The translations under genes and the position numbers were made by a program. The notes under the pieces were generated by a model. It ran no database searches. It had not been told where the DNA came from and saw only the letters and a list, made by a program, of their open reading frames with translations. Shown in pieces: positions 2,493-19,767 of a stretch of 21,308 nt of DNA. Source of the stretch: a virus (taxonomy: Duplodnaviria > Heunggongvirae > Uroviricota > Caudoviricetes); the IMG/VR virus record IMGVR_UViG_3300007747_000074, positions 1 to 21,308 of that record; one strand, 5' to 3'. Positions within the stretch are counted from its first letter, which is position 1, and every line of letters starts with the position of its first letter.

Positions 2493-2795
2493 TTACCAGT
2501 CGTTCCCGGAGGGTGAAATAATCCCGTTCAGCGGTGTCTGCCAGTCGGGGGGAGGCTGCATTATCCACGCCGGAGGCGGTGGTGGCTTCACGCACTGACC
2601 ATCGAGCGCAGCAACATCACGCTGACGCATCTGCATGTCAGTAATTGCCGCGTTCGCCAGCTTCAGTTCTCTGGCATTTTTGTCGCGCTGTTCTTTGTAG
2701 GCGATGGCGTTATCACGGTAATGATTAACACCCCATGACAGGCAGACGACGATGCAGATAACCAGAGCGGAGATAATCGCGGTTACTCTGCTCAT
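2493..2795 (-). pseudogene. Rz/Rz1 spanin remnant: Rz N-terminus fused in frame to Rz1 C-terminus (rzpR-like)
   Basis: First ~65 aa ([33 protein letters not shown]) resemble lambda Rz, then the frame continues into the proline-rich Rz1-type C-terminus ([30 protein letters not shown]); Rz coiled-coil/C-terminal domain and Rz1 signal peptide/lipobox are absent; 4-nt overlap with the endolysin stop. Confidence 0.7.
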
Positions 2796-3268
2796 ACCTC
2801 AATCTCTCTGACCGTTCCGCCAGCTTCTTTGAATTTTGCAATCAGACTGTCAGCCTTATGCTCGAACTGACCATAACCAGCGCCCGGCAGTGAAGCCCAT
2901 ATATTGCTGCAACGGTCGATAGTCTGACGGATATCACCGCGATCAATCATCGGCAAAGCGCCACGCTCTTTAATCTGCTGCAGCGCTACAGCATCCTGAC
3001 TTTCTGGAGAAAAATCTTTCAGGCCAAGTTGCTTGCGGTAGGCATCCCACCAGCGTGAAAGAAGCTGGTAACGTCCAGCGGCTGTTGATTTGAGTTTCGG
3101 ATTTAGCGTGACAAGTTTGCGGGGGTGATCGGAGTAATCAGTGAACAGTTCGCCACCGACAATAACATCATAACCGTGATTTCTGGTTTTCTGCCGTCCG
3201 TTATCTGTTCCTTCTGACCATGCCACCATATCAAGGAAAGCTTTACGCTGGGAATTAAGTGTCTGCAT
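2792..3268 (-). CDS. Endolysin, lambda R-like lytic transglycosylase
   Basis: 158 aa, near-colinear with lambda R as I recall it (..[81 protein letters not shown]..), including the catalytic-glutamate SEGT context; immediately follows the holin. Confidence 0.85.
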
Positions 3269-3271
3269 TAA

Positions 3272-3622
3272 TTACTCCTTATGGGCACCGAACTTGTTAC
3301 CGATGACCCTCATTGCCGCACCACGAATAGCATCAACACCAATCAGCCCCACCCCACCACCAATGGCAACAGAAAGTGATTTAGGCCATCCGACATACTC
3401 AAGCGCGGATGCAAAGGTCAGCGTCAGAGCACCACAAAGCAGAATCTCAAGCGTTTTTCGTTTCCAGCCGCCGCCACCGCCAAAATAGGCAATGCGCAAA
3501 CCAGCCATAATAATTGACATAACCACTGCACCCAGCGGCGTATCTCCACGCCACCAACTTTGTAAGAGTTCCAGTAAGTCAGGCCAGGAATGAGGGGCAT
3601 TGTGCATTTTCATAAGCCTCAC
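3272..3622 (-). CDS. Holin (lambdoid S-like, possible dual start)
   Basis: 116-aa ORF with hydrophobic helices (AVVMSIIMAGLRIAYF; ILLCGALTLTFASALEYV; VAIGGGVGLIGV) and charged C-terminal tail; N-terminus MRLMKM offers closely spaced Met codons like the lambda S107/S105 dual-start motif; sits directly upstream of the endolysin. Confidence 0.65.
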   Translation of the reverse strand: MRLMKMHNAPHSWPDLLELLQSWWRGDTPLGAVVMSIIMAGLRIAYFGGGGGWKRKTLEILLCGALTLTFASALEYVGWPKSLSVAIGGGVGLIGVDAIRGAAMRVIGNKFGAHKE

Positions 3623-3710
3623 CTCCGAGAGTTCGGATGGTGCTAAGTGTAAGATTCAGGCTCTCAGGCTTGCTAACAAGAAGTCGAGGATGTTTCCAGA
3701 GCCTAACAAC

Positions 3711-3737
3711 GAAAAAGCCCCGGGACATGCCGGGGCC
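3711..3737 (-). terminator. Intrinsic terminator on the - strand, downstream of the moron gene
   Basis: GC stem gccccgg (3717-3723) / ccggggc (3730-3736) with 6-nt loop; on the - strand the stem is followed by TTTTTC (complement of 3711-3716); no T-run on the + strand side. Confidence 0.5.
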
Positions 3738-3830
3738 AGATGGAGTGCCAGATTAAGCTTCTGGCGGTATATACTCGTGTTTGATATCGTTAAATCGCCA
3801 AAAGTAACAATTCAAACAAAGAGGATTTTT

Positions 3831-3992
3831 ATGTCTGAAAAAAACAAACCACAAGGTGAAAATAAACCTCAGCAACCCGTGGCACCAAAACCAACTCCAA
3901 CACAAAGTACTACAGACTTTGCTACACGTCGTGTTTTTGTTGGAGATTCTGCCGACTCAGTCATTGAACATATAAAAAAACAGCCGAGATAA
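3831..3992 (+). CDS. Hypothetical small Pro/Gln-rich protein (53 aa)
   Basis: ATG at 3831 preceded by agagga SD with about 7-nt spacing; translation MSEKNKPQGENKPQQPVAPKPTPTQSTTDFATRRVFVGDSADSVIEHIKKQPR; its 3' end overlaps the convergent moron CDS by 32 nt; low-complexity composition makes coding status uncertain. Confidence 0.25.
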   Translation: MSEKNKPQGENKPQQPVAPKPTPTQSTTDFATRRVFVGDSADSVIEHIKKQPR

Positions 3993-4530
3993 ACATCGCC
4001 GCTACCGGAGCAAGGATGGTATACATCCTTGCTTTATCGAGACTCGTGCGGATTTTCTCATTTTCCAACAGTAACTCTCTTGCTGTATCACTCAAGTCAA
4101 CAAGGCGATACCTTCGTATAAGCGGCAATAACTTATCAGGTCCTAAATATCCTGCATCAGCGAATATTTTAAAGCTCGAGGGCTCCATATCCTTATATTT
4201 TTCATGATATAGATGATCAGGAGGGGCATTGATCAGGCCCCTAACCTTCACAGATAAATCAGTACATACCAAGTAAATGGCGCACCATGTCCATAGTAAT
4301 GTAAATGTGGTAATTCCGGCGGTGAGAAAATCGAAATTAGTTTTCTGTGTCAGCAATAAAAAAGATGAACCAATTCCAACAATCTGAATGTTCAGAAGTT
4401 TGTATCCATTCTCAACATTGGTTTTGTTAGAAAGATGAATCTCTCGTATCGTCTCTTCCCCTTGTTTTTCAAGATAATCGACGAGCTCATCATCTACTCC
4501 TAAAAAATAATCTTTAGGTAGTTCTCTCAT
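3961..4530 (-). CDS. Hypothetical membrane protein, AT-rich moron between Q/tR' and holin
   Basis: 189-aa ORF with strong SD (tggaggtgag) before ATG at 4530; acidic N-terminal ~40 aa, then hydrophobic segments (LLNIQIVGIGSSFLLL; FDFLTAGITTFTLLWTWCAIYLVCT; C-terminal MYTILAPVAAMFISAVFLYVQ); AT-rich versus neighbours; no family recognised. Confidence 0.6.
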   Translation of the reverse strand: MRELPKDYFLGVDDELVDYLEKQGEETIREIHLSNKTNVENGYKLLNIQIVGIGSSFLLLTQKTNFDFLTAGITTFTLLWTWCAIYLVCTDLSVKVRGLINAPPDHLYHEKYKDMEPSSFKIFADAGYLGPDKLLPLIRRYRLVDLSDTARELLLENEKIRTSLDKARMYTILAPVAAMFISAVFLYVQ

Positions 4531-4635
4531 CTCACCTCCACATCCTGTACTGAAAACAATTTTACCAGAATGTCTCGATTCTAGGTATTCCGCCAGGAAT
4601 CGCGCTCCAGAAATGAAACATCAGGTTCACCAGTA

Positions 4636-4668
4636 CCAGAAACAACAAAACCCGCTCAATGGCGGGTT
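4636..4668 (-). terminator. Intrinsic terminator on the - strand, candidate tR' (target of Q antitermination)
   Basis: Stem cccgc (4651-4655) / gcggg (4662-4666), extendable by A-T pairs, loop tcaatg; on the - strand followed by TTTTGTTGTTTCT; lies about 85-115 nt downstream of the Q-like stop, the expected geometry for pR'-tR'. Confidence 0.45.
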
Positions 4669-4751
4669 CTGGTAAAGTTCATGCGCTTGGTTCGCCTCGC
4701 GATACAGCTTTGCGAAGCATACCGGAATTGAAGCAGTTTATGCGTAAAAAA

Positions 4752-5207
4752 TCAAGCTATTTTTTGAGCAAATGATTCTCGCATGGGAATATATAGGGCA
4801 TACTCAGCAACAGCCAACCAATTAGCAATTCGCTTTTCGCATGTGCTAAAACACCACTCAGGATGTGCATCATTTAGCAATTCAGCCATTTTGCGCTTAG
4901 TCATCCCCCGTCCTTCATACCGTTGCCGGAGGACACTAATCAATCCAGGATGCTCTGCCAGCACCTCACTTATGACTCGATCAATACATAACGCCTCTGC
5001 ATCAGTACAATGCGCCAGCCAGCTCTTTTGCTTGCCGTTGATCATCTCTCGCAAAAACGCTTCCAGCTCAGCTTTCTCTATTCCCGCTTTTTTCATTCTG
5101 CGCAGGGCTTCATTGATGGCTGTTTTCGTCAATTTTTTGGATGCCAACAACTGATTGAACATATTTCCTGACCTGCCACCGCCAATATACGACCAGCGCC
5201 CCCACAT
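4752..5207 (-). CDS. Putative late-gene antiterminator (Q-like), start uncertain
   Basis: ORF 4752-5414 (220 aa) overlaps the upstream YbcO-like CDS by 124 nt in another frame, so an internal start (Met70 at 5207, or Met85 at 5162) is more plausible; Cys-containing motifs (HCTDAEALC, EWCFSTCEK); assignment is mainly positional (last gene before tR'/lysis cassette). Confidence 0.4.
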   Translation of the reverse strand: MWGRWSYIGGGRSGNMFNQLLASKKLTKTAINEALRRMKKAGIEKAELEAFLREMINGKQKSWLAHCTDAEALCIDRVISEVLAEHPGLISVLRQRYEGRGMTKRKMAELLNDAHPEWCFSTCEKRIANWLAVAEYALYIPMRESFAQKIA

Positions 5208-5290
5208 ACGCAGTTTGCCCTGAATCCAGACACTTTCCAGCGTGGCGAGACGAAGGTGTTCTCCGCTTTTTCCTGTATTCGTTGGGTAAA

Positions 5291-5581
5291 TCACAAATAT
5301 CCCTCCTTTCTCCAGATTTCTTGTGTGCGAAAAACACCTTCTGCATGCATCAGGCGTAATTCTTCTTTGGTGTAATCGCTGGTTTTTACCCGCCCGTCGA
5401 TTAGATCGTGGCATGAGCTACAGGCAATCGCCGCCTGCATATCGTGTGGTTTTGTCGCTGTTCCGCACGTTCCCGCCAGTCGGTAATGCGCCAGCACAGA
5501 CGTTTCCGGATCGTGATTGCAGTAGCCAGGAATTCTGACGGTGCACATCTGCCCCCGCGCCGCTTTACGTAAATCCACCAT
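5291..5581 (-). CDS. YbcO-like (DUF1364) putative Zn-binding nuclease, nin region
   Basis: 96 aa; MVDLRKAARGQMCTVRIPGYCNHDPETSVLAHYRLAG.CGT.TKP..ACSSCHD resembles DLP12 YbcO as I recall it (same length, conserved Cys/His); start overlaps the upstream gene stop (TAATG). Confidence 0.7.
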   Translation of the reverse strand: MVDLRKAARGQMCTVRIPGYCNHDPETSVLAHYRLAGTCGTATKPHDMQAAIACSSCHDLIDGRVKTSDYTKEELRLMHAEGVFRTQEIWRKEGYL

Positions 5582-6180
5582 TACGCAAACTCCAGCAGCT
5601 GCGCGGTCACATTTTCGACTTGTTCCGGAGAGGAAAATTTACGGAACAGAATCCAGTTCCACAGCACATTCAGAACAGATTTATAAACCTGCTGAAACTC
5701 GGTTTCGTCCATATTCGCAAAAGCGATGGATTTCGCCCGACGCCCATGGCTACCATCAGGATAAAGATGCTCGGTGTAAAATCCGGCCTGAATGGTTACC
5801 CACTCGCGGAAAGCCTCAAACGACTTTAGCAATGCCGTATCCCGGGTTCTGCGTGTCGCAACTGTATTCAGATATTGCTCTGCGGCTTCGCTCAGAGCTG
5901 GCGTATGTTCCCGGCCTACTGATTCACATAGGTAATCAACGAATCCTGAAACCAGCTTTCGTTCGCGAGGCGTGATCGCCCCACCGACCGGAGTCCAGTA
6001 ATCGAATCCCAGTTGCAGGAGTTTGAAAAAACGCTTGTGGAATGCGTAGTTACGCACACGCTTAAAGTCTGCGTGTATCCACTCGCCTATTTTGATTTGA
6101 TGCAAAAAATCGCAACTCTCCGGCGTCGCCGGGAGAAGTAGTCCAGAAGAGGTTTGTTTGACCAGTTGTATATGCGCCAT
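5581..6180 (-). CDS. Phage nin-region protein (DUF1367-like), function unknown
   Basis: 199-aa ORF translationally coupled to the YbcO-like gene; family name recalled from lambdoid prophage nin regions, not verified. Confidence 0.55.
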   Translation of the reverse strand: MAHIQLVKQTSSGLLLPATPESCDFLHQIKIGEWIHADFKRVRNYAFHKRFFKLLQLGFDYWTPVGGAITPRERKLVSGFVDYLCESVGREHTPALSEAAEQYLNTVATRRTRDTALLKSFEAFREWVTIQAGFYTEHLYPDGSHGRRAKSIAFANMDETEFQQVYKSVLNVLWNWILFRKFSSPEQVENVTAQLLEFA

Positions 6181-6458
6181 TTCTCAATCTCTCGATGGCG
6201 CAGTGCAGCAGATGCCAGTTGTTCAGGCTGACGAATAAAGTATAAATAAACTGGCTATGGTGTAAAGCTCCACATAACATGAACAAACACTACATATCAA
6301 ATAGCTGATACAAGGATAGAAATACAACACTTATTATTAAAAACGATTAGATAAATTACATTTTAATGTTATGAAAAAGTTCTTTTTTATCATAACATTT
6401 CAACAAAAGCATTACAGATGCACATCCCGTCATCATCAATTATTTAAGGTGGTTAAAC

Positions 6459-6545
6459 ATGGAAAATAACAACTATGCACATCTCGCTCCTTTTTTATCC
6501 GTAATCCTTTTCGCTGGCTGTTTTATATGGGCATTATTTTTATAA
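6459..6545 (+). CDS. Candidate small hydrophobic peptide (28 aa)
   Basis: ATG at 6459 preceded by strong SD aaggtgg (6446-6452); hand translation MENNNYAHLAPFLSVILFAGCFIWALFL, stop TAA 6543-6545; single predicted TM helix; in an AT-rich non-coding island; upstream hairpin (6365-6399). Confidence 0.35.
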   Translation: MENNNYAHLAPFLSVILFAGCFIWALFL

Positions 6546-6992
6546 AGTAGCCGCATGATTAGTTTCTGGAATCATGTTTCCCACTCAAATCATTAACATT
6601 TGATAAGATATATCTAAAAGGATGCCTTTACATTATTTGATGCGTATATGATTTATTTATATGCACAGTAAAGGCATCCTGGAAATAATCAAGATTAATG
6701 ATATATTGCTTATCTCATCCCCCACTGTCTTTCACCCGGAAAACATTTATCGTTAAAAATATATCATAAGTAATTAAATTGAAATTTCAGAACACAACTA
6801 ATGCACACAATAAGATTCAGTAACAGTAATCTATGCGGACTATATCGAGATTTTTTAGTTAAACTTTAATAAGTTATTCCTAACACACAGAATGCACAAA
6901 CTAAAAGTAAAACAAATAGTTATACGAAAAACAACCATATTGATTCTATCTTCTCCTCTAATCAACATATCAATTATGTGTTTCATAACAGC

Positions 6993-7028
6993 TTGACATA
7001 ACCCTCAAAAAGGTGCATTTATAATGCA
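6993..7028 (+). promoter_or_regulatory. Candidate promoter with NsrR-like inverted repeat overlapping the -10, upstream of the YeaR-like gene
   Basis: Perfect TTGACA (6993-6998) and TATAAT (7020-7025) but 21-bp spacer; inverted repeat TGCATT-tat-AATGCA (7014-7028) resembles the core of the NsrR site (ATGCATTT-N-AAATGCAT) as I recall it. Confidence 0.4.
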
Positions 7029-7471: not shown

Positions 7472-7579
7472 TCAGAGCCTCCGTCTGCCAGTTCGGATTC
7501 GTACCTCGCAGAGGTCTTTCCTCGTTACCAGTGCCGTCACTATGACGGTTAAACAGATGACGATCAGGGCGATTAACAT
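7472..7579 (-). pseudogene. hok-family toxin remnant (HokD/RelF-like), degenerate at both ends
   Basis: Hand translation from ATG (complement of 7577-7579): MLIALIVICLTVIVTALVTRKDLCEVRIRTG matches the HokD core, then diverges (GRRRL-stop); the +1 frame continues QTE... suggesting an indel; no HokD-type MKQQKA N-terminus (in-frame stop upstream). Confidence 0.5.
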
Positions 7580-8026
7580 CGTTAAACGTCTTGCAGGACG
7601 CGTAATGTTAACTGGGGCTTTTCTCTATCTACCTTTGGTGTTCATGCCCGAGGCAGATAGCCTCAAGCACCCACAGCAATTCTAACTATCCAATACATCA
7701 CTGCCAACACTTTAAACTCTTACCCTTTAAAACAAGAACAAAATTCAACCAATCAGCATTGGGCGTATACTCATATCCTAGAGAAAACAACTCTTTCTGT
7801 ACTATTTATATCCATATGATTTATAAGCATTTGCCACTTGCCATAGCCGCACAATGACAGTTTGCCATTTGATGTCAATAGATAAAAATGATCGTTTTCA
7901 ATGAGTTACATACTTGCAAGGCGTTGCACATCAGGCCCGATTACGTCAGTATCAAAAGATTACAGATGGTGCATTACTGCCACCTCGCCTTAATGTTCCA
8001 GAACTCTCCAACTTGAGGAATTTTCA

Positions 8027-19578: not shown

Positions 19579-19767
19579 ATGTATAAAATTACCGCCACTA
19601 TTGAAAAGGAAGGTGGCACTCCTACTAACTGGACAAGATATTCAAAATCTAAACTAACGAAATCAGAATGCGAAAAAATGCTCTCAGGTAAAAAAGAAGC
19701 AGGCGTTTCCAGAGAGCAGAAAGTAAAACTGATAAATTTTAATTGCGAGAAACTTCAGTCCTCGTGA
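19579..19767 (+). CDS. ydaC: YdaC-like small protein
   Basis: MYKITATIEKEGGTPTNWTRYSKSKLTKSECEKMLSGKKEAGVSREQKVKLINFNCEKLQSS; alternative upstream starts at 19567 and 19507 exist in the ORF; position between ralR and xis. Confidence 0.5.
   Translation: MYKITATIEKEGGTPTNWTRYSKSKLTKSECEKMLSGKKEAGVSREQKVKLINFNCEKLQSS

Follow-up and report, generated by a model that had tools for sequence, protein, structure and literature searches.

The interval between the antiterminator gene Q and the holin gene S of lambdoid prophages holds conversion genes such as stx and porin genes, and prophage accessory hotspots are a repeated source of new anti-phage and toxin-antitoxin (TA) systems. Ranade and Poteete are said to have described, in 1993, control of the SieB protein of phage P22 by an antisense RNA (sas) that gives self-immunity. 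In phi80 as well as in phage-inducible chromosomal islands (PICIs), the Tai protein of the Tai/Ati system blocks tail assembly, and its gene sits upstream of the packaging module (PMC11364771). Within lambdoid prophages of enteropathogenic and enterohaemorrhagic Escherichia coli (EPEC and EHEC), the small RNA (sRNA) genes PasA and PasC lie antisense to the late operon, directly upstream of the holin gene (PMC8550237; bioRxiv 10.64898/2026.05.13.724894). Here we describe a locus in the Q-to-S interval of a Rac/lambda-like E. coli prophage, contained in a stretch of Caudoviricetes DNA of 21,308 nucleotides (nt) that we call the window (IMG/VR record IMGVR_UViG_3300007747_000074, positions 1 to 21,308). 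It consists of a - strand gene for a 189-amino-acid (aa) inner-membrane protein and a + strand gene for a 53-aa peptide. A first-pass annotation, made from the letters of the sequence, had presented the larger gene by itself as a moron, an AT-rich cargo gene in the slot between Q and the holin gene. We found that the region at ~3706-4756 is a self-contained, horizontally mobile accessory cassette that forms the first unit of the late operon, and we are highly confident that it is a real moron cassette of two genes. The AT-richness, the bracketing terminators and the presence or absence of the cassette in near-identical phages thus agree with the earlier proposal, but the unit is a pair of convergent genes and not a single one.

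A conserved pair of convergent genes

The open reading frame (ORF) of the 189-aa protein (3961-4530, - strand) is preceded by the Shine-Dalgarno (SD) sequence GGAGG (4535-4539), which lies 4 nt ahead of the ATG. The N-terminal 44 residues of the product include 11 acidic (D/E) and six basic (K/R) residues, and hydrophobic 19-residue windows were found at about residues 45-62, 69-91 and 169-189. All the features that had been claimed for this ORF, namely a strong SD, an acidic N-terminus and about three hydrophobic helices, were therefore found. Its AT-richness relative to the flanking phage genes was also borne out, since the gene has 38.8% GC and a third-position GC content (GC3) of 35.8%, whereas the holin, R, Q, ybcO and ninB genes have 47-52% GC and a GC3 of 45-54%.

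We identified 104 homologues in the Enterobacterales (E <= 0.001), nearly all of about 189 aa and sharing 42-98% identity, in Escherichia, Klebsiella, Citrobacter, Serratia, Yersinia, Proteus, Providencia, Morganella, Pantoea and Sodalis. Twenty-three residues are invariant among these homologues, including the motif IVGIGSSFLLLTQ in the first transmembrane helix (TM1), and the strongly conserved residues of the family fall in TM1 and in the N-terminal region, which is predicted to be cytoplasmic and has D13, D14, E21 and E25 in its conserved acidic helix. The constant length of the homologues and the invariant residues indicate that the ORF is a real gene under constraint. The protein matches PHROG 11870, a family annotated as of unknown function, over its full length (residues 1-189 against profile positions 1-189 of 189; E = 2.7e-107). 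Disrupted copies of the gene are frequent, as expected of a costly gene: clusters of 120-130 aa occur on 25-35 contigs, and the truncated or disrupted set comprises the clusters P0035, P0087, P0097 and P0100 and the loci L009-L012, with frameshifts in L009 (Leclercia) and insertion sequences in L010 and L012 (Symbiopectobacterium and a metagenome-assembled genome of Enterobacter).

The second gene of the pair (3831-3992, + strand, SD AGAGGA) starts at the ATG at 3831 and converges on the 189-aa gene, so that the 3' ends of the two overlap by 32 nt. It encodes a peptide rich in Pro, Gln and Lys, MSEKNKPQGENKPQQPVAPKPTPTQSTTDFATRRVFVGDSADSVIEHIKKQPR, which is probably disordered and has the conserved motif DF..RRVxVGDSA(D/E) followed by a basic tail. 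The RefSeq version of this gene is longer, at 71 aa from a GTG start at 3777. The peptide matches positions 20-71 of the 71 positions of PHROG 14506, which is likewise annotated as of unknown function (E = 1.8e-31). Among 20 distinct enterobacterial copies of the peptide gene we counted 2770, 2073 and 4182 differences at codon positions 1, 2 and 3, respectively, as expected for a translated gene under coding selection. The gene begins ATG TCT GAA AAA AAC and thereby contains a run of seven A residues (3838-3844, + strand); in two IMG/VR loci, L036 and L077, the peptide frame is shifted straight after MSEK while the membrane-protein gene is intact, which may reflect sequencing error or slippage.

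The peptide gene was found beside the membrane-protein gene in L002 and L004-L009, which were recovered through the membrane protein, and in 53 of the 80 IMG/VR contigs recovered through a nearby non-coding motif. It also stands next to homologues of 21-34% identity in L094, L096, L097, L099, L102, L105, L108 and L110 (Pasteurella), where the peptides read, for example, MSNQKPSQPQPTPSKPQQPAYKKPEPVFVGDSVDIPKKK and MTNEKPNSPPSAPKP. Only close relatives came out of a search with the 53-aa peptide itself, probably since gene callers seldom report ORFs this small. Wherever the 3' end of the membrane-protein gene is undisrupted, the partner accompanies it. Since the partner is conserved across the whole family, the functional unit is the convergent gene pair.

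Terminators and promoter-like elements of the cassette

Intrinsic terminators on the - strand stand on both sides of the pair. The upstream, tR'-like terminator (4640-4671) has a 10-bp stem followed by TTTTGTTGTTT, and the closing terminator (3706-3737) has an 8-bp stem with seven GC pairs followed by a T run, about 95 nt ahead of the holin start and 224 nt past the stop codon of the 189-aa gene. A terminator scan of 3200-5500 returned exactly two - strand sites, at 4671-4646 and 3737-3716, which equals the number expected from shuffled sequences, so that the count alone proves nothing. Same-sense terminators recur in other genera at distances of 85-110 nt upstream and 220-240 nt downstream of the gene; upstream terminators related to that of the window were found in L002, L004, L005, L006 and L008, and downstream equivalents in L002, L004, L005 and L008.

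The homology between the window and L002 begins at the stop codon of the window's Q gene. The upstream terminator of L002 is identical in sequence to that of the window, but there it is preceded by a different gene and by a distinct promoter-terminator pair, which indicates that this terminator belongs to the cassette and travels with it. The first-pass annotation had placed a tR'-like terminator at 4636-4668 and a terminator of the gene's own at 3711-3737. Both exist, but the former moves with the cassette, and the latter is separated from the stop codon by the conserved + strand gene.

The spacer between the upstream terminator and the ATG of the 189-aa gene has diverged among loci except for one promoter-like motif, GACATTCTGGTAAAAT (4559-4574, - strand; consensus GACATTC(A/T)GGTAAAAT), which is kept in seven of nine loci. 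It contains an extended -10 element, TGn-TAAAAT, with about 30 nt between the end of the hexamer and the ATG. In IMG/VR we counted 38 exact matches to the consensus 16-mer; for 22 of them, a family member's ATG follows 44-50 nt downstream, in subfamilies that share only 50-85% protein identity, and the rest look like chance. Its position and conservation suggest that the motif may be the promoter or operator of the 189-aa gene itself. Further upstream, where the end of the Q gene meets the left edge of the cassette, a candidate promoter region (4727-4817, - strand) contains TTGGCT-18-TATATT (4817-4788; 9 of 12 positions match) and a weaker candidate, TTGATT-17-TTCAAT (4756-4727; 8 of 12), which was read by eye and falls below the scan threshold. 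On the other side of the pair, a small second hairpin, GCCAGA...TCTGGC (3747-3765), was recognised from alignment and folding between the closing terminator and the leader of the peptide gene; L004 and L005 have GCCGC/GCGGC in its place. With sense terminators on both sides, a -10-like motif specific to the membrane-protein gene and a leader before the peptide gene, expression of the cassette looks insulated and autonomous.

Promoters and terminators are also combined at more distant loci. In L094, near-identical promoter-plus-terminator units (3429-3490 and 4270-4329) flank the gene pair as direct repeats, each with TTGACA-17/18-TAAGAT and, within about 12 nt, the hairpin AAGCCGTA..TACGGCTT and a T run. 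A similar promoter-then-terminator unit stands directly ahead of the gene in L105.

Mobility and distribution of the cassette

Region 3600-4760 of the window is 100% identical to the chromosome of E. coli strain YDC107. Of 5426 complete E. coli genomes, 223 carry it at a coverage of >=80% and most lack it; it was also found in four induced phages such as vB_EcoS-673R7. The exact cassette is therefore carried by ~4% of the complete E. coli genomes of the collection, many of them human isolates.

The cassette was found behind three families of Q. The window has a DUF1133 protein that also matches Phage_antitermQ, L004 and L008 have PF03589, and L006 has PF06530, with other cargo genes between Q and the cassette. 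It precedes holins of four families (Phage_holin_3_1, Phage_holin_8, Phage_holin_2_1 and Phage_holin_3_3). Conversely, our survey of the Q-to-S interval in related phages, a check proposed in the first-pass annotation, identified loci, among them L030, L033, L040, L042 and L050, that share the holin (96-100% identity) and Q (82-89%) but have other cargo at the site. The cassette is accordingly present or absent between homologous phage genes, and its base composition differs from that of its flanks.

Distant homologues of the pair occur in Mu-like and P2-like phages. In L094 the pair belongs to a prophage region that also holds SocA_Panacea, KilA-N, SSB and integrase genes. It adjoins an HsdR_N-like gene in L096, has a P2 gpD-like gene on one side and a PAAR gene on the other in L097, stands between HicB and terminase in L105, is found beside a Mu-type portal gene in L108, and adjoins RelE/ParE in a Pasteurella immunity region in L110. 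Some of the pair loci in accessory hotspots thus adjoin TA genes, and every locus that was inspected is a phage context. The exchange of cargo between the same flanks and the variety of accessory sites represent moron behaviour, while the four holin families and the contexts away from lysis genes speak against a function linked to any one lysis system.

One of the loci used above, L002, is recorded as the Actinobacillus phage vB_Apl-pPE4 (PP818812). Its NinB, YbcO and Q are 96%, 99% and 86% identical, respectively, to those of the E. coli prophage, and CP100067, a 47.7-kb record of an E. coli 'plasmid', has the same tblastn identity as pPE4 (52.9%) and nearly the same E-value; the attribution of L002 to an Actinobacillus host looks doubtful. 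We also considered gp31 of L002 as a paralogue of the membrane protein and rejected it, because tblastn matched L002 only once and the N-terminus of gp31 looks, by eye, to be of the Bro-N/antirepressor type.

A leader element shared with other cargo

Directly ahead of the SD of the peptide gene lies an inverted repeat, TTTGATATCGTTAAATCGCCAAAAGTAACAATTCAAAC (3780-3817, + strand), that is highly conserved in the alignment, and a block within it, TGATATCGTTAAATCGCCAAAAGTAAC, is even better conserved than the -10-like motif. An 18-mer of this leader is present in >=80 IMG/VR contigs. In ~26 of them the leader precedes unrelated small cargo genes and not the gene pair, ending a few nt before the ribosome-binding site of varied cargo that is oriented against the late operon. 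It adjoins the holin-proximal terminator or a tRNA gene and, where contigs extend far enough, lies on the holin-proximal side of the slot; loci with the leader include L014, L016, L018, L022, L028-L033, L046 and L051. The alternative cargo includes a Zn-ribbon 67-mer and proteins of 92, 148, 165, 170 and 177 aa, for which scans against Pfam and PADLOC gave no informative annotation.

One arm pair of the leader covaries (T-A 7, C-G 14, C-A 5, T-G 0; Fisher p = 0.0012, a value uncorrected for relatedness). Folded as RNA, the inverted repeat is not thermodynamically exceptional (z = -1.5), and the leader matched no Rfam family. We suggest that it may act as a shared leader or operator for reverse-oriented cargo, either as RNA or as a DNA site. 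By preceding varied cargo it marks a site of cassette exchange at the holin-proximal end of the Q-to-S interval, and the leader could be used to mine further cargo. The holin-proximal non-coding block was also compared with PasA/PasC; no similarity was seen by eye in the PasA region of strain E2348/69, and the block was rejected as a homologue, leaving a positional analogy only.

Predicted topology and family searches

The AlphaFold2 model of the 189-aa protein, built on a 42-sequence alignment, has a mean predicted local distance difference test (pLDDT) score of 81 and contains helices at residues 14-62, 68-90 and 134-188 with short helices between them. In this model the long helices 14-62 and 134-188 would pass from the cytoplasm into the membrane, and helix 68-90 would be the second of three TM helices. 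The loop at 92-168 contains 14 K/R residues, the loop at 63-68 is only about six residues long and the C-terminus projects by no more than one residue, so we infer from the positive-inside rule that the protein is oriented N-in/C-out. On the cytoplasmic side there would then be an acidic N-terminal helix and a helical loop of 77 residues, together nearly all of the non-membrane mass, and this placement fits sensing or acting inside the cell.

Neither the 189-aa protein nor the 53-aa peptide matched a family in scans of Pfam (E <= 0.1 for the membrane protein of the window) and NCBIfam, and the best PDB sequence profile for the membrane protein gave E = 0.13. The first-pass annotation had recognised no family, and across the Pfam, NCBIfam, PADLOC, PDB-sequence and fold searches this remained so; in particular, no confident match to a structural or lysis family was obtained, and the only assignment was to PHROG 11870. 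When 70 family members were scanned against Pfam (E <= 5), scattered weak matches appeared to the TM-rich families DUF2207_C, 8xMP, YLATT, PycTM and STING_TM, which involved at most five of the 70 members (best E 0.002-0.33) and which we dismissed as compositional noise. The holin families of Pfam gave no match to the protein of the window, and one of them, Phage_holin_3_6, was touched by only two of the 70 members (E = 0.21). Kinship with SieB (PF14163) was rejected at an hhalign probability of 0.3%, and PF14163 was not among the 25 most-matched Pfam families over the 70 members. For RexB of lambda the hhalign probability was 0.2%, and this kinship was rejected as well. Comparison with the literature on svsR, HepS and Tai/Ati indicated that they are unrelated to the 189-aa gene. 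No Rfam family reached its gathering score in the cassette, and the matches at E ~1 or more are noise.

A whole-library profile search returned 101 clusters, nearly all of them stand-alone proteins of up to ~260 aa and many of 160-200 aa, with no visible link to a larger family, and tblastn with the 189-aa protein matched only five phage records. The family is uncharacterised rather than unseen; what is new is that a convergent peptide gene is conserved as its partner and that a leader element is shared with other cargo. The module, conserved in hosts ranging from Escherichia to Pasteurella and in phages of lambdoid, Mu-like and P2-like type, matches no described family.

Other features of the prophage

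The order of genes on the - strand is ninB-like gene (5581-6180), ybcO (5291-5581), the DUF1133/Q-type antiterminator gene (4752-5294), the 189-aa ORF, the lambda-family holin gene (3272-3622), the endolysin gene (2792-3268), Rz/Rz1, trkG and a ParB-like gene. The potassium transporter gene trkG (839-2314, - strand; 37.8% GC, GC3 32%) is a second AT-rich cargo and lies between Rz and the ParB-like and terminase genes. A full-length match to the RalA antitoxin sRNA (RF02694, 225 bits; 19585-19763, - strand) indicates that the prophage carries a Rac-type ralR/ralA type I TA locus. RefSeq annotates a Hok/Gef family toxin gene in the identical prophage of YDC107 (L001, 12873-12998), which corresponds to ~7472-7597 (- strand) of the window and is its third toxin-like small membrane gene. 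Between the ninB-like and DUF1971 genes, ~0.85 kb at ~6180-7020 has 29-33% GC and is free of RefSeq genes, and the ORF list contains only one short frame (43 aa) there.

Proposed role and rival explanations

A restrained effector fits best with the conserved and predicted cytoplasmic domain, the obligate convergent partner, the insulation, the moron distribution and the frequent disruption of the gene. We tentatively propose, at somewhat less than an even chance of being right, that the pair comprises a membrane effector restrained by the peptide and/or its antisense RNA and serving phage exclusion, abortive infection or prophage stabilisation, in the manner of a toxin/antidote module for phage conflict. 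In its logic such a module would resemble SieB/sas of P22 or type I TA loci that overlap at their 3' ends, while belonging to neither. The 189-aa protein would be the effector, acting through perturbation of the membrane or through a block of an inner-membrane step. Overlapping transcripts are likely, given the overlap of the converging ORFs and a - strand terminator placed past the peptide gene. In the lysogen, the peptide and/or the antisense transcript of its gene may keep the effector at a low level or inactive, while the two terminators would keep cassette transcripts out of the lysis genes. Infection by another phage or loss of the prophage could upset this balance and allow the effector to act. 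During the prophage's own late phase, read-through by Q would transcribe the effector along with the lysis genes. The convergent architecture, which is unusual and strictly conserved, predicts toxicity and phage exclusion that are relieved by the partner.

Several observations weigh against a restrained effector. The promoter scan found no canonical sigma-70 promoter for either gene, PADLOC-DB 2.0 contained no defence or candidate-defence model for either protein at E <= 1, the library scans revealed no recognisable toxin, pore or enzymatic domain in the 189-aa protein, and fold searches with it retrieved just generic long helical bundles. The truncated copies may simply be the product of prophage decay, and the position directly behind pR'/tR' would also suit a purely late-expressed phage function.

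A late-phase function would make the protein an accessory of lysis timing or envelope preparation, for example antiholin-like, co-transcribed with S-R-Rz by Q read-through. The product is an inner-membrane protein, its gene lies upstream of the holin gene and behind the late terminator in the large majority of the lambdoid loci examined (the 53 IMG/VR contigs and most genome loci), and L105 and L094 have the promoter-then-terminator directly ahead of it. We nevertheless regard such a function as quite unlikely, since the four holin families are unrelated, distant homologues with the peptide partner are far from lysis genes, phages with the same holin and endolysin have other cargo in place of the cassette, the full region is absent from most E. 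coli genomes and no holin family of Pfam rose above noise. The lysis modulator that the first-pass annotation had listed among its options is disfavoured by the first two of these points. Improbable to a similar degree is classical superinfection exclusion, in which a non-toxic protein would block the entry of phage DNA at the inner membrane (compare HK97 gp15 and T4 Imm) and the peptide would be a separate regulator. This would suit an inner-membrane protein that is encoded by a prophage moron, has a conserved promoter-like motif of its own and also occurs in immunity regions, where exclusion genes are typical, but the predicted periplasmic exposure is minimal (the short loop, with no C-terminal tail), conservation is strongest in the cytoplasmic N-terminal region and TM1, and the obligate convergent partner is left unexplained.

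The pair could instead be a lysogenic-conversion or host-fitness factor apart from phage conflict, such as a modulator of stress or transport. The same prophage has trkG as AT-rich cargo, and the slot is known for conversion genes; against this, the protein has no transporter or enzyme signature, the family was seen only in phage contexts at the inspected loci, and a partner that converges and overlaps, together with tight insulation, points to a product in need of restraint. We consider this explanation unlikely. That the 189-aa ORF is a chance or decaying frame without function might be thought from its annotation as a 'hypothetical protein', but this is refuted by the length kept across genera, the identity among homologues, the invariant residues, the full-length PHROG match and the confident structure model, and its probability is close to nil.

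Returning to the restrained effector, a broader version of it is possible, although we hold it more doubtfully. The pair might represent a new and widespread conflict family of temperate phages, with a three-TM effector that has a cytoplasmic helical bundle and, as antidote, a disordered peptide rich in Pro, Gln and Lys together with its antisense RNA. Such a system, without kinship to those described, would serve abortive infection or addiction and be installed in enterobacterial lambdoid phages through a shared 'plug-in' leader that would also drive other reverse-oriented cargo between Q and the holin gene.

Comparison with known systems

SieB of lambda and P22, a membrane protein of abortive exclusion that is grouped with the antisense sas RNA and Esc, is comparable to the 189-aa protein in its size (184 aa in lambda), in its place in the inner membrane and in being encoded by a prophage, and its gene is also transcribed against a neighbouring operon, with lambda sieB converging on N. 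However, SieB has N-terminal TM helices and a C-terminal soluble domain, is encoded at another genomic location and has no sequence or profile kinship with our family, and the cassette has as partner a peptide gene that is conserved, not an internal start. RexA/RexB of lambda is similarly a two-component prophage exclusion system with a membrane component, but RexB has four TM helices, RexA is a large soluble partner and the two genes are co-directional. Tai/Ati shares with the cassette the combination of a defence gene in a moron locus and a small counter-acting gene under different temporal control, though the two systems are not homologous and phi80 was not among the five phage records recovered by tblastn.

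The type I TA systems of Bacillus subtilis prophages, txpA/RatA and bsrG/SR4, resemble the cassette in being prophage-borne, convergent units that overlap at their 3' ends, with a membrane protein on one strand. Their toxins are shorter than 60 aa, whereas the 189-aa protein has ~120 non-membrane residues and a large part predicted to be cytoplasmic; the antisense unit of the cassette, moreover, encodes a conserved peptide. PasA differs in being a non-coding, Hfq-dependent sRNA where the cassette has a peptide-coding unit, and the conserved leader is absent from the PasA region of E2348/69.

The morons of the Q-to-S interval, including stx, the porin gene nmpC/lc and the esterase gene nanS-p, occupy the same slot, which follows the late promoter and terminator and precedes the holin gene, and they likewise have a foreign base composition and are present or absent among related phages. 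Their products are unrelated to those described here. The first-pass annotation had pointed to the slot in which Stx phages carry their toxin genes, and this holds for the position, but nothing beyond the position links the cassette to Stx-like toxins. Among the occupants of this slot, the cassette is distinguished by its two convergent genes and by a terminator pair of its own.

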